Positions 1,963 through 12,953 of a DNA stretch of 42,181 nt are shown in pieces (position 1 is the first letter of the stretch; every line of letters starts with the position of its first letter). The notes beneath the pieces were generated by a model. It was not told the origin of the DNA and did no database searches. It saw nothing but the letters and a program-made list of their open reading frames with translations. Both the position numbers and the translations under genes were made by a program. This DNA is from a virus (taxonomy: Duplodnaviria; Caudoviricetes), in the IMG/VR virus record IMGVR_UViG_3300020043_002662, positions 1-42,181 of that record. One strand, written 5' to 3'.

Positions 1963-2752
1963 TGAGGTTCATGAACTCAGCCGTTTTGTATCACACAACC
2001 AAACCTGCTATATTGTGTATAACAATGACAGGAAGGTGTACTCACATTACTTTGTGTGTTATGGGAAGCTAAAATCGGTATACGAGATTAACACGCACAT
2101 TGCCTTGAGTCTACAGAGAACTGGGTGGGATGGTACATACCAAAACTGGGAAGATTGGGTTAGAATGGTACTAACTAAGACTCACTTCCGTGACATACTG
2201 TTAACAACAGATGTTGAGAAGGTCATAAGAGATAAAGCATTAGTTGTCAAAACTAATGTTCCTAGCTGTGAATTGCTGTACAACCTAATCTTGCTAAGAG
2301 CTTACATTGAAAGACCATACTCATGCCAAGTAATTCTTGACCTTATTGAGCATGGTGTTGAACCAATGGTAGCCATTGCTTGTGGAAGTTTTTACAGGTA
2401 TAGTGGGGATAAGCTTTGTCTCGATAAGCTTTTCCATGACCAGCAGATTGTCCATAGTGACGTAACTGTAGGTTGGGTGAAGAACTTATTGAGTAACGAG
2501 CATGTAAAGTGTACTAAATACTCTGACACAGGCTCTTACTCGATAGTGATGGGTTATTGGGACTACAACAGAAGGAAAGCAGGTTTAAAAACTACCCTGC
2601 TAACGGTACTACAGAGTGTCGAAAGTGGCCGTGTGGGTGGTTGGTATGAAAGTCCTTTCCCTGCGGTACGGAATGTTGTGCCGATTTTGTATGATTTTAA
2701 TTCGGTGGTAGCTAAAGTTAAGGAGGTAGAAAGTGTTTGTAATCCTGCATAG
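1943..2752 (+). CDS. hypothetical protein at the head of the peptide-ligase cluster
   Basis: Long ORF; GTG start at 1943 chosen from the GGAGG RBS at 1933. Confidence 0.75.
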   Translation: MYEKELSEVHELSRFVSHNQTCYIVYNNDRKVYSHYFVCYGKLKSVYEINTHIALSLQRTGWDGTYQNWEDWVRMVLTKTHFRDILLTTDVEKVIRDKALVVKTNVPSCELLYNLILLRAYIERPYSCQVILDLIEHGVEPMVAIACGSFYRYSGDKLCLDKLFHDQQIVHSDVTVGWVKNLLSNEHVKCTKYSDTGSYSIVMGYWDYNRRKAGLKTTLLTVLQSVESGRVGGWYESPFPAVRNVVPILYDFNSVVAKVKEVESVCNPA

Positions 2753-3431
2753 TGTTACGGGTAAGAGTGCTAAGGCATTGTCTGAGTCGATGAATAAAGC
2801 AGGTTTACCCTGCAAGGTTCAAAGACCATACAAAGATGGTTATATTGGTGAGGATGGTGTTAAGTATATTAACCTTGGGTGTAGTAAGTTTATGCAATCA
2901 GGTGAATATGTATTGAACACACCACAAAGTGTATTGAATTGCGTGGATAAGCGAACAACATTCAAGTTGTTATCTGACATACCAACACCTAGATGGTGTG
3001 ATAAGTGGGAAGATATTGGCGAGGATTGGGCTGGTGTAGTGGCTAGAGACATTGTTGGGGGTAATAATGGCGATGGACTTGAATACTACGACACCAAGGA
3101 GCAGGCGCCAAAAGGTCTTGAGTTGTACACAGAGACGCGCTACTGGAGTAGTGAGTTTCGTGTGATTGTATCCTTAGGTGGAGTGTTTGTCTACAAGAAG
3201 CTTCGTGACAAGGGTGGTGCTTGGGTATTTAACAAGCAAGTTAACAAAGAGTATGGTAAGATTGTAAAAACTTGCGTTGAAGCTGCTAGTAGGTTGGGTG
3301 TTGAGCATGCTGGGTTTGATGTACTAGCTCACAACCGCAACAAGTTCGTTGTTTTGGAAGCTAATAGCGGGTCTATACTACCAGAAGAAGTTATTAAACA
3401 CATGGTTAGGAAGTTTAGGGGGTTGTTCTAA
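2733..3431 (+). CDS. ATP-grasp (RimK-like) ligase
   Basis: N..DKRTTF..L..IPTP, EFRV and AGFDVL...VLEANS motifs. Confidence 0.8.
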   Translation: MFVILHSVTGKSAKALSESMNKAGLPCKVQRPYKDGYIGEDGVKYINLGCSKFMQSGEYVLNTPQSVLNCVDKRTTFKLLSDIPTPRWCDKWEDIGEDWAGVVARDIVGGNNGDGLEYYDTKEQAPKGLELYTETRYWSSEFRVIVSLGGVFVYKKLRDKGGAWVFNKQVNKEYGKIVKTCVEAASRLGVEHAGFDVLAHNRNKFVVLEANSGSILPEEVIKHMVRKFRGLF

Positions 3432-4645
3432 TGTGTGGTATTGTTGGTGTAATTGGTGATGTTGGTGCAGCGGAGGCTAAGGTTTTTGAAACTTTGCTTA
3501 AGCTTGACGCCATTAGAGGGTTTGACAGTACAGGTGTTGTTTGCATAGATGGTGAAGGTAACACTGCCATACATAAAATAATGGGAGTACCACATGAGTG
3601 GTTGCGCAGTGAAGATTGGAGTAGCTTCAAGAAACCTAAGATGCGACTGTTGCTAGGTCATAATCGGTACGCGACTCAGGGGGTGGTCGACCTTAAGAAT
3701 GCCCACCCATTTGTACACAACAAGATTGTTGGTGTGCATAACGGCACACTTATCAACCGAAAACAGTTGCTAGATAGTGGGAAATTTGAGGTAGATAGTG
3801 ATAATATCTATCACCACATTAGTAAGAAAGGTTTGAAAGATTTTGTAGATAATAGTTCAAACGGTAGTTATTGCCTAGCTTGGGTTGATGGTCACACGAA
3901 GACCTTCAACATGCTAAGAAACTACCAAAGACCAATGTATATGGCTAGAGGTCTTGGTAAGTCTTGTACATTCTTTGCCTCTGAAGAATGGATGCTTGAG
4001 GTTGCCTTCGCTAAGAATTCGTACATTGGCGATGCACCTGCTGAGTTAGAAACTAATAAGTTATACCAAATCAAACTCGATGGAGTGGGTTTGGTCAATG
4101 GTGATTCACATGGACAAGAGTTTAAGTACACTTACAATTACACAAAACCACGAGCTGTAACTTTTAACACAACAACTGTTGTAGGGAAGCTTAGAAGTTT
4201 TTTCTACGCTGGCGAGGTGAAGAGTCAGCGTGGTGATTTTCTCTTCACCAATGGTAGTTGTAATGGTGCAACTGTTCGCGTAGTTTTTAAGGGCGAACAT
4301 TCATTAAAGCGTAAGCTACTGAGTAGCAGCGCTACAACCGAATTTACTGGGTCTGTACTCCACATGATGAGGGTGAATGGTGTTAGTGTACCAGTTATTG
4401 ATGGAGAAAGTATTGAAGCTAAACCGAAAGTTAGTGTGACTAAAATGGTTAGTGGTTTCCTAATGACAGAGCTGGAGTTCAACAGAGCTATCAGTGGTGG
4501 TTGTGCTTGGTGTACAGGCTATTGTGACTTTAACAAGCACAGCCACTTAGTTTTGTTTGACCAAGACAGGAAAGACTTCTTGTGTCATACCTGTAATACA
4601 AAAGAAAACCGTAAATTTTTTATTGCTAATGAGGAATGGGTATGA
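3431..4645 (+). CDS. class II (Ntn) glutamine amidotransferase with C-terminal Cys cluster
   Basis: N-terminal MCGIVG, RGFDSTG, GHNRYAT, NAHPF, HNGTL and DSD motifs; C-terminal CxxC...CxxC. Confidence 0.9.
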   Translation: MCGIVGVIGDVGAAEAKVFETLLKLDAIRGFDSTGVVCIDGEGNTAIHKIMGVPHEWLRSEDWSSFKKPKMRLLLGHNRYATQGVVDLKNAHPFVHNKIVGVHNGTLINRKQLLDSGKFEVDSDNIYHHISKKGLKDFVDNSSNGSYCLAWVDGHTKTFNMLRNYQRPMYMARGLGKSCTFFASEEWMLEVAFAKNSYIGDAPAELETNKLYQIKLDGVGLVNGDSHGQEFKYTYNYTKPRAVTFNTTTVVGKLRSFFYAGEVKSQRGDFLFTNGSCNGATVRVVFKGEHSLKRKLLSSSATTEFTGSVLHMMRVNGVSVPVIDGESIEAKPKVSVTKMVSGFLMTELEFNRAISGGCAWCTGYCDFNKHSHLVLFDQDRKDFLCHTCNTKENRKFFIANEEWV

Positions 4646-5472
4646 AAACTAAACTGAAACTTGGTTGTGACCCTGAAGTTTTCCTTCGTAAGAAGGGTCG
4701 TAAGACTTTCACCAGCGCTGTGGGGTTTAGTACAGGGACTAAGGAAGCACCTCAAAAACTTAAAAAAGGTGGTTTACAAGTAGATGGAATGGCTTTGGAA
4801 TTTAATATAAAGCCAGCGACGACTAAAGACGCTTGGGTTGGTAATATAAAATCTGTAATGGATGAGATGAAAGAGTGGACAGGTTCTTACGATGTGGTAG
4901 CAACACCAACTGCACACTTCACCAAGAAGCACATGGAGGCACAACCAGAGTGTGCAACTGAGCTTGGGTGTAACCCAGACTTTAATGCTTGGCGTGATTC
5001 AAGGGCGAACCCAACCCCTAATGCAACTAATGTGAACTTCCGTACTGGTGCAGGTCATATACACTTTGGTTGGTGTGAGGGTGTAGACCCACACCATCCA
5101 TTACACTTAGCCACTTGCGAACTCTTAGTTAAGAGTTTAGATGTAACACTAGGCTTTCTATGTACTAAGTTTGACAACGATGTTTTGCGCTCAAGTTTAT
5201 ATGGGAAGCCAGGAGCCTACCGACCAAAGTCCTACGGTTGTGAGTATAGAGTGCCAAGTAATGCTTGGCTTCGTGACGAGGCAACTATAGCTTGGGTGTA
5301 TGATGTATGCAAAAGAGTGTTTCAGTTACTTTGTAGAGGTTATAGACTCAGTGGCAGCTTCAATGAATACGATGTTAATTATGTGTTTTCAAACAGAAAC
5401 ATATATAGTGATAGACACAGAAGGATGGAGTCTATTGTAAGAAAGTACAGCATACCACAACCACCATTGTAG
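4636..5472 (+). CDS. phage COOH-NH2 ligase type 2
   Basis: LGCDPEVF, DGMALEFN, GCNPDFNAW, RTGAGHIH and GAYRPKSYGCEYR motifs. Confidence 0.9.
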   Translation: MGMKTKLKLGCDPEVFLRKKGRKTFTSAVGFSTGTKEAPQKLKKGGLQVDGMALEFNIKPATTKDAWVGNIKSVMDEMKEWTGSYDVVATPTAHFTKKHMEAQPECATELGCNPDFNAWRDSRANPTPNATNVNFRTGAGHIHFGWCEGVDPHHPLHLATCELLVKSLDVTLGFLCTKFDNDVLRSSLYGKPGAYRPKSYGCEYRVPSNAWLRDEATIAWVYDVCKRVFQLLCRGYRLSGSFNEYDVNYVFSNRNIYSDRHRRMESIVRKYSIPQPPL

Positions 5473-5480
5473 AGGTCTTT

Positions 5481-5999
5481 ATGTATGATTGTTCGGATTA
5501 TGCATACAGGGATTTGTGCAACTCATTCATGTGGGTTAACAACTCTGTGTTGTTTATATGCGAAGTTAGTGAGGGATTCATGGCGACTGGTGTTAACAAG
5601 GATGGGGAGTTTGTTGATTTTAATGTTAACAATGTTTTACTAAGGACACCCACTGTTGGTTATACCATAGGTCGTTATGGGTATTATGAGTATTTAGTAA
5701 GGTTGAATAGAGTGCGTGGATGTTATAAGCGTGGTGTTTGCGCACACAACACTCCTGGACTACATGAATCAAACCGAGCATTGGTGTGTGAATCCTTAGA
5801 AAATACACCTATAACTAAGGACTACTTGGTTGAAGCACTACAAACTAGGGATTGTGTGGTTGGTGGTGTGTTCTTAGTTAAGATGGATGGCACAGTACAC
5901 TACAAAGGGTGCGCTGTTGGTGTGTTTATAGAAGGTTCTTTCAAAATGAAGCGTGGTAAGAAATATCTGAAAGATTTAATTGAGGGTTTGCTGCTATGA
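5481..5999 (+). CDS. hypothetical protein
   Basis: 172-aa ORF with GAGG RBS, coupled to the next gene. Confidence 0.75.
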   Translation: MYDCSDYAYRDLCNSFMWVNNSVLFICEVSEGFMATGVNKDGEFVDFNVNNVLLRTPTVGYTIGRYGYYEYLVRLNRVRGCYKRGVCAHNTPGLHESNRALVCESLENTPITKDYLVEALQTRDCVVGGVFLVKMDGTVHYKGCAVGVFIEGSFKMKRGKKYLKDLIEGLLL

Positions 6000-6772
6000 G
6001 TGGTTTAGTTTGTATAAAAACAACTTGTAAAAAACAAACATTTGGTGTTGAGGTGGAGGTGGAGGGTCATAACATAGACAGTGTATATTGCTCTTTCTGG
6101 GATAAGGTTGTTGACCACTCACTAAGGGGTGAAAGTTGTGAGTTTGTACTCAAAGAAGCTAGTAGTATGTCCTACGCTAGTCGGGCTATACAGGCATTGA
6201 AAGAGCAATTAGTTAATGGCACTGCCTTACCATCCATAAGAACATCAGTCCACATTCATTTGAATGTCCAGCACATGACTTACTTGCAGATTATGAACAT
6301 CATTACAGTGTACTTTGCACTTGAAAATGTGTTTATGAGCTGGTGTGGTGTAAAGAGGGAGGGTAATCCGTTTTGCCTACGCAACCAAGATTCCGAGGAG
6401 CAGTTACTAACACTTATCAGTAGTGCTAAGTCTCGTAACTTTAATAGATTGGAAAATGGCTTTAATCGTTATGCAAGTTTGAATTTGCAAGCCATCTTCT
6501 CTAAAGGTTCCTTAGAGTTTAGGGGTATGCCATTACCTACAGATTTAGATGACATACTAATTGGTATGGATGTCGTTCGTCGTATCAAAAAGTTTGCTAG
6601 GAAGTTTAAGAACCCAAAGGAGGTTGCTAAACAGTTAGCTAAAGGTCATGTACAATTCGCTAAGGATGCGTTTGGTGTGCATTACGACACATTTGATAAC
6701 GGTCAGGTTGAACAGAATATGGCTACATGTAGTGTGTTTGTTAACGACTTAGCTTATTGTAGGGTATGGTAG
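5996..6772 (+). CDS. putative amidoligase (Amidoligase_2-like)
   Basis: FGVEVEVE, DxSLR..CEF, RTSVHIHLN, RYASLN and GSLEFR motifs. Confidence 0.85.
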   Translation: MSGLVCIKTTCKKQTFGVEVEVEGHNIDSVYCSFWDKVVDHSLRGESCEFVLKEASSMSYASRAIQALKEQLVNGTALPSIRTSVHIHLNVQHMTYLQIMNIITVYFALENVFMSWCGVKREGNPFCLRNQDSEEQLLTLISSAKSRNFNRLENGFNRYASLNLQAIFSKGSLEFRGMPLPTDLDDILIGMDVVRRIKKFARKFKNPKEVAKQLAKGHVQFAKDAFGVHYDTFDNGQVEQNMATCSVFVNDLAYCRVW

Positions 6773-6774
6773 CC

Positions 6775-6816
6775 CAATGTGATGCTAGAGCCGGTAATTT
6801 TTGCTAGAAAAATTTT
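6775..6816 (+). promoter_or_regulatory. candidate phage promoter/regulatory motif, copy 2
   Basis: Degenerate repeat of 905-945 (CAATGyGATrCkAGAGC...AAT...TGCTAGAAAA-TTTT) in an intergenic gap. Confidence 0.5.
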
Positions 6817-6839
6817 CAACCAATTAGAGGTTTTGTTAT

Positions 6840-7184
6840 ATGAATAGTTGTTTCTTCTATGGTACTTTGAAGCGTGGTCACTATAATAATGAGCGTTTTT
6901 CAGGCAAGCTTAAGTTTGTTTGTACTGGCTTTGTGCATGGCCACACCCTAGTTAGTCAGAATGCTTGCTACCCACATGCCATTGAGTTGCCAGGCGGGGT
7001 TGTTACAGGTGAAGTATTTGACCTAGATGATGCCACCCTAGCTAGTATTAACTCAATGGAGTTTGGTGCTGGTTACAAGATTAAGAGTGTCTGTGTAAGA
7101 ACTGAGCATGGCTTTATTGAGTGCTTAATGTACTACTCAGACGACCAAGAGTTGAAAAACTTACCAACATATAGTACGTTTTGA
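6840..7184 (+). CDS. gamma-glutamylcyclotransferase (AIG2/GGCT-like)
   Basis: FFYGTLKRG N-terminal motif, V.GEVF and a catalytic-type Glu in SMEFG. Confidence 0.85.
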   Translation: MNSCFFYGTLKRGHYNNERFSGKLKFVCTGFVHGHTLVSQNACYPHAIELPGGVVTGEVFDLDDATLASINSMEFGAGYKIKSVCVRTEHGFIECLMYYSDDQELKNLPTYSTF

Positions 7185-7185
7185 G

Positions 7186-7629
7186 GTGATTATGTTGAAA
7201 GTTAAAAAATTAGTTGACAAAGCTGTTGTTCCAGAGTATGCTACTCCAGGTGCAGCAGGTATGGACTTAGTTGCTACCAGTGTTGATTATAAAGTTAGTG
7301 GTACTTACGATGTGATACAGTATGTAGAGTATGGAACAGGACTAGCTTTTGAAATACCAGAAGGTTATGTTGGGTTACTGTTTCCACGGTCAAGTGTAAG
7401 CAACACTGATTTAATGCTAGCTAATAGTGTTGGTGTTATAGACTCTGACTATCGTGGGGAGGTGAAGCTTCGCTTTCGTGAGGTTGGTGTTTTAGGTTCA
7501 ATTTATAAGGTTGGTGACCGTGTAGGTCAAATTGTGTTTGTACCATCCATAAACTTACCTGTAACTGTTGTGGGTACACTGAGTGACAGCGCTCGTGGTG
7601 AAGGTGGGTTTGGTAGCACAGGGGCTTGA
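7186..7629 (+). CDS. dut: trimeric dUTPase
   Basis: AGMDL, PRSS, GVIDSDYRGE and RGEGGFGSTG motifs. Confidence 0.97.
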   Translation: MIMLKVKKLVDKAVVPEYATPGAAGMDLVATSVDYKVSGTYDVIQYVEYGTGLAFEIPEGYVGLLFPRSSVSNTDLMLANSVGVIDSDYRGEVKLRFREVGVLGSIYKVGDRVGQIVFVPSINLPVTVVGTLSDSARGEGGFGSTGA

Positions 7630-8474
7630 CGATGCAAACATACTTAGATTTGCTACAAGATGTAATGGATAATGGTGAGTATTTACAGAACAGGACTGGT
7701 GTTGCCGCTAAGTCAGTGTTTGGCAGACAACTTCGGTTTGACTTGTCGGAAGGCTTTCCTGCTGTAACGACTAAGAAGCTTGCTTTTCATGCTGTTAAAA
7801 GTGAGTTGCTGTGGATGCTGAGTGGTTCTTCTTGTGTAGATGATTTACGAGCTATACAATATGGCGAAGATAATCGCTATAACCCTGACAAACGAACTGT
7901 GTGGGACGATAACTACGAAGTGCAAGGTAGGGCATTAGGTTATACTGACGGGCAGCTAGGGCCTGTATACGGCGCACAATGGCGTGGTAGAGCAAACCAC
8001 TTCACTGACCAGATTAGTGCAGCTATTGAACAAATCAAGTCTGGGTCAAACTCTCGTAGAATTATAGTGAGTAGTTGGGATGTTGCTAGTATTGACAGAA
8101 TGGCACTGCCACCATGCCACTTAATGTTCCAATTTAAAGTGGTAAGGAATAAGCTATGTTGCCTAGTATATTTACGCTCCAATGATTTGTTCTTAGGTGC
8201 GCCTTTTAACATTGCGTCATACGCACTACTCACTCACATGGTTGCTCAAGTGTGTGAGTTAGAGGTTGGTGAGCTTATTTACACAATAGGGGATGCCCAC
8301 ATTTATGAAAACCATTTTGAAGTGGTTGAGAGGCAACTTAGTCGCACTCCACTAAACAAGCCTAAGTTAATGTTAAATGGTGTGGTTGATTGTATTGATG
8401 ATTTCGTGGTGGAAGATATTAATTTAGTCCACTATGATTCTTATGGTGTGTTAAGTGCTAGTATGGTGGTGTAG
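7626..8474 (+). CDS. thyA: thymidylate synthase
   Basis: RTG, FPAVTTKK, LGPVYGAQWR, MALPPCH, RSNDLFLGAPFNIASY and GDAHIYENH motifs. Confidence 0.97.
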   Translation: MTMQTYLDLLQDVMDNGEYLQNRTGVAAKSVFGRQLRFDLSEGFPAVTTKKLAFHAVKSELLWMLSGSSCVDDLRAIQYGEDNRYNPDKRTVWDDNYEVQGRALGYTDGQLGPVYGAQWRGRANHFTDQISAAIEQIKSGSNSRRIIVSSWDVASIDRMALPPCHLMFQFKVVRNKLCCLVYLRSNDLFLGAPFNIASYALLTHMVAQVCELEVGELIYTIGDAHIYENHFEVVERQLSRTPLNKPKLMLNGVVDCIDDFVVEDINLVHYDSYGVLSASMVV

Positions 8475-8548
8475 CTGAGGGGCGAGAGATGAGCGAAGCG
8501 AAGAACGAGTCCAGTGGCGAAACCACGACCTCTAACAAATTGTTATGT
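8473..8548 (-). repeat. truncated attC (distal; R' lost at the thyA stop)
   Basis: Minus strand ACATAAC-aattt-GTTAGAGG...CCTCAGC, then thyA sequence where GTTRRRY is expected. Confidence 0.7.
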
Positions 8549-8794
8549 TGCCCATTTTGCGGGCATAAGCCAGACATGAGTGATGGCGATACGTTGTACC
8601 CTGCTGGGATTTACTGGGTAAAAGACGACTCTATTGGCCGAGCGTATATTGGAAGACAGCATGATCGTTTTGCAGAAAACCCAACAGAGTGTTGGAAAAT
8701 GAATTGTGTTGAGATTGCTGGTGGATGTGGGGCGAGCATAATCGGTGACAGCAAAGAAGATGCTGTTGCTAGGTGGCAACGCAGGGCAACCTAA
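8489..8794 (+). CDS. cassette gene: Lar-like (restriction alleviation family) zinc-finger protein
   Basis: CPFCG...C..GGCGA...SKEDAVARWQRR pattern typical of the Lar family; its stop TAA is the TTA of the core site. Confidence 0.7.
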   Translation: MSEAKNESSGETTTSNKLLCCPFCGHKPDMSDGDTLYPAGIYWVKDDSIGRAYIGRQHDRFAENPTECWKMNCVEIAGGCGASIIGDSKEDAVARWQRRAT

Positions 8795-8878
8795 CGCCTG
8801 AGTTAAGCCGCGCTGCCACGCGGAAACTGAAATACAGAACCGCTACGTGGCAGCGGCGGCTCGAACGATTTATTAGGG
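8789..8878 (-). repeat. attC site (90 bp)
   Basis: Minus strand CCCTAAT-aaatc-GTTCGAGC...GCTTAAC-tcaggc-GTTAGGT; stem GCTGCCACG/CGTGGCAGC; R'' has AAT instead of AAC. Confidence 0.85.
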
Positions 8879-8902
8879 CGCAAACGCCCGGAGGAGAAAA
8901 CT

Positions 8903-9184
8903 ATGAAAGACGCGATTCGCTACACGATCACCATTGAAGCAACGGTGCAGCGAGAGGAAGCCGCAGGGAGAGAATGGAAGCCAGTAAGCAACGAACCCGG
9001 CGCAAAGATGGATTACACCCCGCAGATCACTAAGGTGATTGAGCGAGAGATTGAAGTCTATAAGCAGGAGGTGGACACCCTTGATATGAACGCAGTTATT
9101 GGTGTGATCAATGGACTACCGACGACCAACGGGGTGGCTTGCCCTGAGTGCGGGCACTGCTTTGAGGTGTGCTGCCAATACTGA
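8903..9184 (+). CDS. cassette gene: hypothetical protein with C-terminal CPECG motif
   Basis: GGAGGAG RBS; 93-aa ORF bounded by attC sites. Confidence 0.8.
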   Translation: MKDAIRYTITIEATVQREEAAGREWKPVSNEPGAKMDYTPQITKVIEREIEVYKQEVDTLDMNAVIGVINGLPTTNGVACPECGHCFEVCCQY

Positions 9185-9185
9185 C

Positions 9186-9270
9186 TGCTAACGATTGAGT
9201 TAAGCGGCCCGCGCTTTGCGTTGGCCAGATGCGCGGACTTGCAAGGGTCCGCTTGAATGATGTGTTAGGC
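9186..9270 (-). repeat. attC site (85 bp)
   Basis: Minus strand GCCTAAC-acatc-ATTCAAGC...GCTTAAC-tcaatc-GTTAGCA. Confidence 0.92.
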
Positions 9271-9292
9271 CTTGGTGGCAGGAGAGGAAACC

Positions 9293-9496
9293 GTGAAAGA
9301 AAAACGAACTCGTGTGAGTACGTCCATGGTGCGCTTGATTTGCGAAAAGTGTGAAGGCGGAGAGATGAAGCCAACGGGAATTTGCCTGACATCGAATCCA
9401 CCTCAATACCCGCATAGATGCGACAAGTGCGGTCACGAAGAGACGGTGCGCGGAGGCAGGACTTACCCTCGCATCAAGCACGAAGAAGAGGCCTAA
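9293..9496 (+). CDS. cassette gene: zinc-ribbon protein
   Basis: GTG start after GGAGAGG; CEKC...NPPQYPHRCDKCG; stop TAA inside the core site. Confidence 0.8.
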   Translation: MKEKRTRVSTSMVRLICEKCEGGEMKPTGICLTSNPPQYPHRCDKCGHEETVRGGRTYPRIKHEEEA

Positions 9497-9548
9497 CACC
9501 GGAATTGACGGGCGCGTAGCGGCGGTCAGGTTGATTGAATTGTTATGC
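9491..9548 (-). repeat. attC site (58 bp)
   Basis: Minus strand GCATAAC-aattc-AATCAACC...CGTCAAT-tccggt-GTTAGGC. Confidence 0.85.
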
Positions 9549-9571
9549 GGCATTTTTCCTACGGAGGACTT

Positions 9572-9757
9572 ATGACAGAAGAAGAATGGCAGGACGAGGT
9601 AAGAAGGCGCGATGAAATTATTGATGCCAACAAAGGCATTGAACTTGATTTTCTTTATGCCGATGCCAAGTTGCAGGCGATTAAGTGCATTATCGAAAGT
9701 TCTGCAAGCGAAAGAGAAAAACTGAAAATGGCTAGAGCGTTGATTATTTACGCATGA
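9572..9757 (+). CDS. cassette gene: hypothetical protein
   Basis: ATG at 9572 after GGAGG; bounded by attC sites. Confidence 0.75.
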   Translation: MTEEEWQDEVRRRDEIIDANKGIELDFLYADAKLQAIKCIIESSASEREKLKMARALIIYA

Positions 9758-9758
9758 C

Positions 9759-9815
9759 GCATAACCTTGCCATAAGCGGCGAGTGAAACGAGTCCGATTC
9801 ATGGCGTTGTTATAC
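9759..9815 (-). repeat. attC site (57 bp)
   Basis: Minus strand GTATAAC-aacgc-CATGAATC...GCTTATG-gcaag-GTTATGC. Confidence 0.88.
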
Positions 9816-9829
9816 GCCGAGGAGATATT

Positions 9830-10051
9830 ATGAATATAAGGCAATTATTGAAAAAGTTGAAAACCGCATCTGGAGATGAAGCTATTGATGCAGTGGAAGT
9901 TTTGCAATCGGGCAGAATTGAAAAGGACGATTTTGAAGCGTGGTGGTATGGATGTGGGAGCGGTCTTGCTCCGATGGATGGAGAAGATAGAGAGACACAT
10001 TGCCACAGAGTTTGTGCAGAGTTCTACGTGCATATGACTAAAGGCGTATAA
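9830..10051 (+). CDS. cassette gene: hypothetical protein
   Basis: GAGGAG RBS; stop TAA inside the core site. Confidence 0.8.
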   Translation: MNIRQLLKKLKTASGDEAIDAVEVLQSGRIEKDDFEAWWYGCGSGLAPMDGEDRETHCHRVCAEFYVHMTKGV

Positions 10052-10135
10052 CGCCCGAGCTAACGGGCAGCCGCCAGAAGTGACAGAGCAAATGAACCAT
10101 GCTGAACGGCTGTCCCGTTGAGCGAATTGTTAGGT
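10046..10135 (-). repeat. attC site (90 bp)
   Basis: Minus strand ACCTAAC-aattc-GCTCAACG-ggAcagccg...cggctgcc-CGTTAGC-tcgggc-GTTATAC, with the canonical unpaired C and A in the L'' arm. Confidence 0.93.
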
Positions 10136-10149
10136 TTTGGAGGAAAAGC

Positions 10150-10422
10150 ATGGGAACAGCAACAGGCAACACGATACGACAATTGCGAAGCACCGGACGC
10201 GGCAGCGACCACTACGGAGGGTGCGACCAATGCGGTAAGCACATGAGCGAATGCTTTGTGAGCCAAGTGAAGCGGGAGTATCGCCGCGACGACGGAACAC
10301 TGTATTACGGCTCTGTAGGTGGTGGGGCATACGGACACAGGGAGTGCCTTGAGAAATACTTTGGGCCTCATGTTGAGAAACCTAACATGATTTATACGTC
10401 AAATGTTTTGACTGGGGTTTAA
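10150..10422 (+). CDS. cassette gene: CxxC-containing hypothetical protein
   Basis: ATG at 10150 after GGAGG; CDQCG...HxxC; reads through the attI-like site to a TAA 2 nt before the primase ATG. Confidence 0.8.
   Translation: MGTATGNTIRQLRSTGRGSDHYGGCDQCGKHMSECFVSQVKREYRRDDGTLYYGSVGGGAYGHRECLEKYFGPHVEKPNMIYTSNVLTGV
10380..10398 (-). other. attI-like recombination site
   Basis: Minus strand CGTATAA-atcat-GTTAGGT (degenerate L box, 5-bp spacer, R core) with no attC hairpin, at the head of the array. Confidence 0.6.
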
Positions 10423-10424
10423 AT

Positions 10425-12089
10425 ATGGGTAAGTGTGTATTAAAGATTAGTCACGATGATTGTGGGTCTAGCGATGGCTTACAAGTGTTTGCACAAGATG
10501 ACGGCTCGCTAGATGGCTTCTGTTACGCTTGCAGTACGTTTGTATCCAACCCCCTTGGTGATGGTAAAAGGTTGTCTGATATACCACCTGAGCAACGTCT
10601 GTGTAAGTCTGACGAAGAGGTTCGAGAGGAGTTAGATGACATAGCTTCCTGTACAACTGTTGACTTACCTACGCGAAGGTTAAGAGCTAATGTACTTGAA
10701 CAGTTTGGTGTTAAGGTTGGTGTGTCTAGTAGAGATGGTAAGACTCCAACTGTAGTGTTCTTCCCTTACTATAAGGACGGAGTGCTTACAGGTTATAAAG
10801 CTCGTTCACTAGAGGCTAAAAGGTTTTGGGCTGTTGGTAGTATTAAAGATGCTGACTTGTTTGGTTGGGAACAAGCTAAACAGTCAGGAGCTTCGCGCCT
10901 AATCATTACTGAGGGCGAGTTTGATGCTTGTGCCTTAACCAAAGTGTTTGAGTTGTACGAAGAGGAGAAGTATAAACATACAATACCTGCTGTAGTAAGC
11001 TTACCATCAGGTGTGAGTAGTGTTGAGAAGGTGTTAGGTAAGCACTTGCAAGATATTAACAGGTTGTTTAGAGATGTTAGCTTCTCTTTTGACGATGATG
11101 AGTCAGGCCGTGAGGCTCTTGTAAAGGCTTGTGCCTTGCTACCACTAGCCACAACTATTAATCTCCCACTTAAAGATGCTAACGAGTGTTTGATTAAAGG
11201 TAAAGGTAAAGAGGCTTATCAAGCAGCTAAGTGGAAAGCTGTTGTACCTAAGAACTCCCGCCTAATATCACTAGACTCTGTTTGGGAGTCAGCTAAAGAG
11301 CCAGCTAAATTTGGTGTTAGTTGGCCTTGGAAGCACATTACAGAGGTTACGAGAGGCATTAGGACTGGTGAGACAATTTACATAGGTGCTGCTCAGAAGA
11401 TGGGTAAGTCTGAGGTTGTTAACTCGCTAGCTGACCACTTGGTTCGTGAACATAACTGGAAGATTCTGTTAGCTAAACCAGAGGAGTCTAACGCTAAGAC
11501 AGCTAAGCTACTTGCAGGCAAGGCTGTACAAGCTAGGTTCCACGACCCACGAGTTGAGTTTGACCTAGAGAAGTTTGAAAAAGCTGGTGAGATGTTGCTT
11601 GGTGATAAGATTTATATGCTTAACTTATATCAGCATTTAGGTTGGTCATCACTGAAGACAGATATTATAGTAGCTTCTCAGTTAGGTGTTAAGGCTGTGT
11701 TCATTGACCCAATCACTAACCTAACGAATGGTATGAACTCTGCCGAAGCTAACACTAAATTGCAAGAGATCGCACAAGACTTAGCAGCTATGGCTAAAGA
11801 CCTAGACATTGTAATCTTCATCTTCTGTCACCTTCGTAACCCTGAGAGTGGGTTAGACCACACAAGAGGTGGTAAGGTTTTAACCTCTCAGTTTGCTGGT
11901 AGTAGGGCTATGGGTAGGTCTTGTAATTATATGTTTGGTATTGAAGGTAACAAAGACCCAGAGCTTCCAGAAGACCAACGTAACATCCGACACTTAGTTC
12001 TACTGGATGATCGTGAGTATGGTGAGTCTGGTAGTTTTAGTTTATATTGGGATAAGGATACAACAATGTTTAATGAGGTTGTGGTATGA
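10425..12089 (+). CDS. T7 gp4-like DNA primase-helicase
   Basis: N-terminal HxxC..CxxC zinc-binding domain, TOPRIM (TEGEFDA, FDDD), Walker A variant GAAQKMGKS, FIDPIT and HLR motifs. Confidence 0.95.
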   Translation: MGKCVLKISHDDCGSSDGLQVFAQDDGSLDGFCYACSTFVSNPLGDGKRLSDIPPEQRLCKSDEEVREELDDIASCTTVDLPTRRLRANVLEQFGVKVGVSSRDGKTPTVVFFPYYKDGVLTGYKARSLEAKRFWAVGSIKDADLFGWEQAKQSGASRLIITEGEFDACALTKVFELYEEEKYKHTIPAVVSLPSGVSSVEKVLGKHLQDINRLFRDVSFSFDDDESGREALVKACALLPLATTINLPLKDANECLIKGKGKEAYQAAKWKAVVPKNSRLISLDSVWESAKEPAKFGVSWPWKHITEVTRGIRTGETIYIGAAQKMGKSEVVNSLADHLVREHNWKILLAKPEESNAKTAKLLAGKAVQARFHDPRVEFDLEKFEKAGEMLLGDKIYMLNLYQHLGWSSLKTDIIVASQLGVKAVFIDPITNLTNGMNSAEANTKLQEIAQDLAAMAKDLDIVIFIFCHLRNPESGLDHTRGGKVLTSQFAGSRAMGRSCNYMFGIEGNKDPELPEDQRNIRHLVLLDDREYGESGSFSLYWDKDTTMFNEVVV

Positions 12090-12830: not shown

Positions 12831-12953
12831 AGGTGTTAATTGGTTGTGAGTGTGCTAGGGAGCTGAATAGTGGTATGGGATTGTAAGCATTCTCCGTATG
12901 TTCGACATCGCTTGATACAGTAACCAGCACTCAGTTTTTGGTTAGAGGTTATT

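Follow-up and report, generated by a model that had tools for sequence, protein, structure and literature searches.

Backwards integron-type cassettes and a putative attI-like dock before the primase-helicase gene of a Zobellviridae-like podophage

Clusters of attC sites lacking an integron integrase (CALINs) are known from phages, and the parts of the survey by Qi et al. (2023; PMC9892861) drawn on here report 17 of them in 10,705 phage genomes, together with activity of the integrase IntI1 on five attC sites from virulent phages. Off-target capture is suggested in these parts as the origin of phage CALINs. A preliminary description of the DNA considered here, IMG/VR virus record IMGVR_UViG_3300020043_002662, could not say whether such arrays were undescribed; that survey has already described clusters of this kind, without an integrase, in virulent phages. 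The record is a linear virus contig of 42,181 nucleotides with an estimated completeness of 86%, and was analysed over its whole length (the window). Between thyA and the primase-helicase gene it carries six small genes with the anatomy of an integron cassette array, in which attC sites and genes run in opposite directions. Among near-identical phages the occupants of this interval change at a single position just before the primase, and cassettes and attC families are shared with unrelated phages. We propose, at a probability of roughly three in four, that this position belongs to a fixed attI-like site (the dock) at which one-gene cassettes vary, inserted by an integron integrase acting in trans that would most likely come from a co-infecting or resident phage with a backwards integron.

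The attC sites and their polarity

The anatomy of attC and the role of its bottom strand as the recombining one follow Nivina et al. (2016; PMC5027507), as far as the portions of that source used here go. Five complete attC sites and one truncated site had been reported in the array, and all six are upheld at the stated coordinates. The five complete ones are recognised by an oriented attC grammar (boxes, spacers and two extrahelical bases), four of them by a profile of sites from other phages and one by a match to plasmid pR148. The small genes are likewise present, as six open reading frames (ORFs) on the plus strand between the end of thyA (8474) and the start of the primase-helicase gene (10425). 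What the preliminary description missed is the minus-strand position of the attC sites and the attI-like dock in which the array ends.

The truncated site (8474..8548, minus strand, as are all the others) is the stub of what would be the oldest cassette, and retains R'', L'', the variable terminal structure and L', with R' and its spacer gone. The complete sites belong to cassettes 2 to 6. The site of cassette 2 (8789..8878) has a grammar score of 27 and a fold z of -4.15, that of cassette 3 (9186..9270) scores 33, and that of cassette 4 (9491..9548) is 82% identical to a pR148 class 1 integron attC and is found by the profile with an E-value of 1.7e-6. The site of cassette 5 (9759..9815) scores 29 with a profile E-value of 0.006, and that of cassette 6 (10046..10135) scores 35 with a fold z of -3.60.

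All five complete sites show the R''-L''...L'-R' boxes with conserved AAC/GTT and paired arms, the exception being the R'' of 8789-8878, which reads TAAT and not TAAC. The extrahelical C and A occupy aadA7-type positions on the minus (top) strand in the second, third and fifth complete sites, and one of the two differs in the first and fourth; the plus strand of the window resembles the aadA7 bottom strand as given in Table S3 of Qi et al. (2023; PMC9892861), the part of that work used for this comparison. The grammar gives 27-35 for the minus strand and no more than 24 for the plus strand, by which a reading of the attC sites on the plus strand was ruled out. Hits of 27 or more occurred in 0/200 Markov-1 copies of the region, and 42-kb copies gave a mean of 0.2 hits, a null that is optimistic because the grammar was tuned after the sites had been seen. 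Three lines of evidence are independent of this tuning: the profile, the pR148 match and the polarity found for the published phage array TJE1. The profile, built from eight attC sites of other phages, recovers four of the five complete sites, all on the minus strand (E 1.7e-6 to 0.38), with no further match in the window and none in 12 relatives that lack an array. Minimum-energy folding is significant in only two of the five sites, and an Rfam search returned no match.

Since the genes occupy the plus strand and attC the minus strand, the cassettes are backwards: all five complete sites are inverted with respect to their ORFs, opposite to pR148 and to TJE1. In TJE1 the same grammar finds sites and genes sharing one strand, and in the alignment with the pR148 attC the cassette genes of that plasmid lie on the opposite strand. 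Read along the plus strand, the bottom (recombining) strand of attC, each cassette consists of the attC hairpin and then a gene ending in TAA, so that each gene faces the dock. Differences from homologues in the plus frames concentrate at codon position 3 (30/45 and 22/30), and these frames are therefore taken as real genes under purifying selection; the first count is that of ORF6, which is 85% identical to its homologue in L030, a contig without the full hairpin. Minus-strand ORFs as the true genes were rejected on this codon pattern.

The dock, its changing occupants and the sharing of cassettes

Insertion of circular cassettes at a G|TT leaves matched core ends as its trace, as is well established for integrons. 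The core ends of cassettes 1 to 6 match at 5, 4, 6, 6, 6 and 6 of six positions (33/36 in total), compared with only 22/30 for the two ends within single attC sites. In contig L001, a close relative of the window at this locus, three cassettes have core-end matches of 10-12 nt. Cassette 6 has its matched end at 10380-10386 with no hairpin behind it, which gives the position of the dock (10380..10410, minus strand), with the crossover between 10386 and 10385 at the minus-strand G|TT. The spacing of the dock recurs in the docks of L028 and L033, where RTCA follows, and in attI sites located beside phage IntI genes. The latter show TAAC, five nucleotides and TT, as does the dock, and attI1 has one base more before TTA. 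The dock thus behaves as a fixed insertion point with attI-like spacing, at which binding of IntI is putative. The motif by itself is weak and non-diagnostic. A scan of viral contigs with a 16-mer of the dock gave 15 matches, among which the L001 contig alone seemed relevant. An integration host factor site in the dock was discarded as it is not conserved in L028 or L033.

Two side observations concern dock-like elements elsewhere. In L001, positions 3472-3995, beyond the shared stub, hold a short cassette with 10-bp matched ends, a dock-like TAACATGA element and a cysteine-rich repeat gene resembling one in Vibrio phage 1.238, and this segment could represent either another dock or a cassette of the attI type. 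Close to their pattern match, contigs L045, L070 and L075 have short inverted repeats of the form GTATAAC...GTTATACGTCAA that lack an attC hairpin and resemble cassette ends and the second box of the dock.

A comparison of the thyA-primase interval had been set beforehand as the test of the 'plug-in accessory-gene platform' postulated for this phage, and it bears the idea out, as gene content is wholly different in near-identical phages. Genome G001 is 96-98% identical to the window in four blocks covering ~35 kb, yet 8496-10382 is wholly replaced by other inverted cassettes, with identity back at 10383. Furthermore, public sequencing runs were compared (8 of the 20 holding the primase, one for each of 8 studies). 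In all eight, the DNA ahead of the primase is foreign, and the match of the primase contig to the window begins at 10383 in six runs and at 10380 in two. The upstream ends of six runs, those other than X2 and X7, were compared and are different from one another and from those of the window and L001. At least eight different occupants are thereby found among phages ~99% identical in the primase, where array parts not covered in a run were not counted as absent.

At the left border, the junction of thyA and stub is common to the window, L001 and run X7, and run X2 spans it without differences. In X7 the end of thyA is joined to cassette 4 (joint 8492 to 9531), so that the cassette 4 gene is the first after thyA, and in run X8 cassettes 1-2 lie behind a copy of another site. 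Both X2 and X8 diverge from the window at 9133, inside the cassette 2 gene, and cassette 2, whose core ends match at only 4 of 6 positions, is likely a fusion of two cassettes. Among more distant phages, L028 (60% identical in the primase) likewise holds inverted cassettes, which are its own, and a dock resembling that of the window lies ~1 kb before its primase. No array was found in the stretches examined of 12 relatives (L002-L012 and L029; primase 51-59%), three of which have less than 3 kb of upstream DNA and none of which has thyA within the examined stretch.

The stub corresponds to a complete 87-nt attC in the unrelated phages L032 (95%), L033 and L034 (86%) and L148 (81%). In L032, L033 and L034 this attC precedes genes other than ORF1, one of which is common to L033 and L034, and the N-terminal leader of ORF1 heads different genes in all four phages. 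The last cassettes of L001 and of L033, an unrelated phage encoding DnaB, are 86% identical over 310 bp; the common unit extends from the upstream hairpin to TAA, and the docks of the two differ. With its core ends matched and one unit found in two unrelated phages, the cassette behaves as a mobile unit bounded by G|TT. In addition, a Lar-like cassette of L001 is 81% identical to one in L034. As a separate observation, L033 2317-2544 and L034 4001-4228 hold one cassette (98% over 269 bp) on different phage contigs and at different loci.

BLASTN of the array gave no match to cultured phages and a single attC only against plasmids. Exact-pattern scans of GTDB for the phage attC families, which are insensitive, yielded 0 hits in one case and in the other 5 hits, all outside an attC context, for which reason no host is assigned. 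The cargo was not found in bacterial genomes by these two exact-pattern scans. The cargo is of phage type and is shared between phages.

The integrase and the competing explanations

The preliminary description encountered no tyrosine recombinase, and this holds: neither a tyrosine recombinase nor IntI was found in the window, which is the whole record. None was found in G001 (78% complete), in four further cassette-sharing contigs or in five relatives that are 97-100% complete. Its absence from the window, G001 and these five relatives is consistent with integrase action in trans.

A profile scan of IMG/VR for IntI confirmed 312 stretches, of which the best 80 were kept, redundant contigs included. 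Clusters of at least two attC sites are present in 26 of these best 80 contigs, and by the grammar 54 have no cluster. According to a rule based on ribosome-binding sites, 21 of the 26 clusters are inverted, 2 are canonical and 3 are ties. Contig L148, the only one inspected by eye, encodes an IntI (TIGR02249, 466 bits) with an attI-like site just before it, the attC family of the stub and a gene that starts within the hairpin. Genome G015, that of a complete tailed phage, likewise combines an integrase with inverted cassettes; since a Terminase_6N search matched 0/5 IntI contigs, phage identity is confirmed for G015 only. A further integron integrase (TIGR02249, 383 bits) was noticed in the bioreactor phage Virus Rctr41k (KX853513; 4680-5700 and 8415-9650), where it lies in line with early genes and is followed by an attI-like site and attC-like hairpins; this phage is absent from the phage lists of Qi et al. 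(2023; PMC9892861), as far as the parts of the source used here extend. Because phage-borne integrons share the polarity and the attI spacing, and one of them (L148) also the attC family of the stub, and because no host copy turned up in the GTDB scans, an integrase supplied by a phage in trans is probably to be favoured over one supplied by the host.

In the proposed mechanism, the donor of the integrase would be a co-infecting or resident phage whose integron is complete and likewise backwards. The cassette genes would be expressed as part of the operon of the phage that carries them, and the most recent cassette would stand at the end, next to the primase, the reverse of the order in bacterial integrons. 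Cassette 6, which adjoins the dock, would accordingly be the newest. Older cassettes would be displaced in the direction of thyA and eventually disappear, either excised or deleted between repeats, and the oldest hairpin, with its R' lost, would be stuck.

Several findings weigh against this reading. The second box of the dock is TTA compared with TTC in the IntI-linked sites, and is shorter, and a degenerate dock pattern has 57 viral matches, of which one (the L033 contig) has an attC cluster upstream. The left border keeps the stub with different DNA beyond it in L001 and X7, and both this border and cassette 2 look as if they were shaped by deletion or recombination between repeats rather than by IntI. 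The rule used to call orientation is a rough one and gave ambiguous results for canonical controls (TJE1 'C?', L154 '???C???'). None of the whole cassette genes of the window occurs in the 80 IntI-bearing contigs, and the similarity to these is limited to attC. With no host assigned, a chromosomal IntI cannot be weighed, and the 86% completeness of the record leaves room for an integrase of its own. Two relatives are classed as proviruses by IMG/VR, which touches the label 'lytic'. A promoter scan gave no excess over shuffled copies. Finally, PADLOC matched 0/6 cassette genes, and functional hints are confined to ORF1 and ORF3, both weak.

It is possible, albeit unlikely, that the integrase is the chromosomal IntI of a bacterial host and that the dock is a favoured secondary hotspot of the attG type and not an evolved attI. 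According to the parts used here of a preprint (bioRxiv 10.1101/2022.09.11.507474), short GWT sites, some of them hotspots, receive cassettes through IntI1-3; the dock motif is short and not diagnostic, and a lytic phage always meets host proteins. However, the same spacing and RTCA in the docks of L028 and L033 suggest a conserved site, and attI is reported to co-evolve with its own integrase in the consulted portion of another source (PMC8946536). Moreover, the two exact-pattern GTDB scans did not find such an attC family.

That co-infecting phages exchange arrays through recombination, homologous or by slippage, at attC repeats and flanks, with IntI no longer involved, is improbable. Repeat-mediated deletion does fit the way in which the stub is joined to cassettes in L001 and X7, as well as the fusion in cassette 2, but the switch falls within 3 nt of G|TT in 9/9 comparisons (L001 and the eight runs) with no upstream homology, and core ends are matched cassette by cassette. 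A still smaller chance is left for an own integrase encoded in the missing ~14% of the genome. Incompleteness of both the window and G001 allows for it and many phages carry IntI, but the inspected IntI phages have the integrase directly after attI, where the window phage has the primase, and the five complete relatives, which are array-less too, are without a tyrosine recombinase. A one-off capture of a since decayed bacterial array or a chimeric assembly would fit the GC content (0.51 in the array, 0.42 in the rest of the genome) and the differing third-codon usage (T at 0.24 and 0.39, respectively), but is scarcely tenable and already contradicted by L001 and the runs, given at least eight occupants at one base, phage-like genes inverted relative to bacterial cassettes and the X2 read-through of the thyA-stub junction.

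Cargo, genome context and relation to known integrons

The insertion by a trans-acting integrase proposed above concerns small genes, all on the plus strand. The gene of cassette 1 (8489..8794, 101 aa) has its start codon within its own attC stub and is Lar-like (PHROG 599, E 4e-5), and its homologues fall into Atlas clusters in which Lar_restr_allev is found on 15-43% of members. That of cassette 3 (9293..9496, 67 aa) has two CxxC motifs, matches PHROG 9369 (E 4e-9) and is 40% identical to a gene annotated as Lar family in phage SSBI34. Lar-like hints are also present in 3/19 other cassette or array proteins. No function is assigned to the genes of cassettes 2 (8903..9184, 93 aa), 4 (9572..9757, 61 aa, nine homologues) and 5 (9830..10051, 73 aa); ORF5 has no match in Pfam, PHROG or PADLOC, and Atlas look-ups of the homologues of ORF4 and ORF6 named no family. 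A GGAG/GAGG ribosome-binding motif precedes ORFs 2-6. The cargo consists of small phage-type genes (Lar-like, CxxC), with predicted roles in host takeover or counter-defence.

The gene of cassette 6 (10150..10422, 90 aa, 19 homologues) continues across the dock and ends 2 nt short of the primase ATG. This read-through could couple a docked gene to translation of the primase. ORF6 has no stop codon at the crossover, and an A>G change at 10422 is seen in 4/8 runs.

On the left, the array is flanked by thyA (7632..8474, plus strand; PF00303, E 9e-91), whose stop codon is fused to the attC stub, and on the right by the primase-helicase gene (10425..12089, plus strand), with Pfam DnaB_C and Toprim domains. 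The best cultured match of the latter, in a single-gene comparison, is Zobellviridae Vibrio phage 1.235.O (60% identity), which suggests a Zobellviridae-like podophage; it is presumed lytic from this family likeness and from the finding of no integrase. Metagenomes of the runs holding the primase are labelled wastewater, sludge, riverine and soil. The promoter scan found one sigma-70-like site at 7214-7242 and none promoter-like at the dock, and transcription of the array is assumed from gene order. Elsewhere in the window, 2733-7184 is a phiEco32-like cluster (ATP-grasp-like, glutamine amidotransferase, COOH-NH2 ligase, amidoligase and gamma-glutamyl cyclotransferase genes), 849-893 in the early non-coding region consists of short tandem AAAACCT-like units, and at 12850-12854, between a sigma-factor-like region and DNA polymerase, G001 has ~135 additional bases.

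A broader proposal, for which we consider the chances even, is that phages run an integron economy of their own. IntI would come from temperate phages, and even virulent ones would maintain a minimal dock within an essential operon, through which they sample a common pool of backwards, phage-adapted cassettes that serve counter-defence or host takeover. If true, this would be the phage-side mirror of bacterial integrons stockpiling anti-phage genes, with turnover faster than divergence of the phage genomes. Phage attC clusters would no longer count as 'captured debris' but as a gene-loading site at work, for which there is evidence at the population level, and a site-specific route for rapid accessory-gene mosaicism of lytic phages would be indicated. 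The cassettes would also constitute a pre-selected library of small phage genes for screening, and the borrowing of an integrase by a virulent phage within one infection cycle becomes directly testable.

With bacterial integrons the array shares the R''/L''/L'/R' boxes, the two extrahelical bases, the G|TT crossover, the matched core ends and the stacking at an attI-like site. It differs in that no intI was found in the window, no cassette promoter (Pc) is recognised and one gene starts inside a hairpin. No intI was found in the window or in G001, and no Pc on the attI side, so the array is by definition a CALIN (at least two clustered attC sites with no intI nearby) and not a complete integron, although it appears to work like an attI with its cassette array. 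Genes facing the attachment site would be silenced in bacterial integrons, whereas in the window they are in line with the phage operon. Complete integrons borne by phages (L148, G015 and 19 IntI contigs) have the same polarity, the same attI spacing and overlapping attC families, but carry intI directly after attI, where the window phage has its primase.

Insertion at GTT outside a complete integron is common to the window and to attG sites, as treated in the parts used of the preprint (bioRxiv 10.1101/2022.09.11.507474), but the dock is reused in every strain seen and conserved in other phages. The published phage CALINs (PMC9892861), in the sections considered, have in common with the window an attC cluster, small ORFs, no integrase, a virulent-type phage and the same site build. 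These sections give 2-4 sites per counted phage and describe no dock or strain-level turnover in virulent phages, and the TJE1 array is in canonical orientation, unlike the window. The attC sites of PH101 were not found in the 45 of 132 kb examined. Phage MW202573 has four minus-strand attC sites among plus-strand genes (2069-3738), where the ribosome-site rule is ambiguous; this cluster seems to be inverted, which would place the build in published data, yet undescribed in the portions of Qi et al. 2023 referred to here. In a literature search at the level of listings and abstract openings, largely outside subscription papers, neither backwards cassettes in phages nor a phage dock nor turnover between strains was found as the subject of a paper. 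Relative to the published phage CALINs, what appears to be new at this locus is therefore the backwards polarity, the dock and the unusually direct population evidence of turnover.

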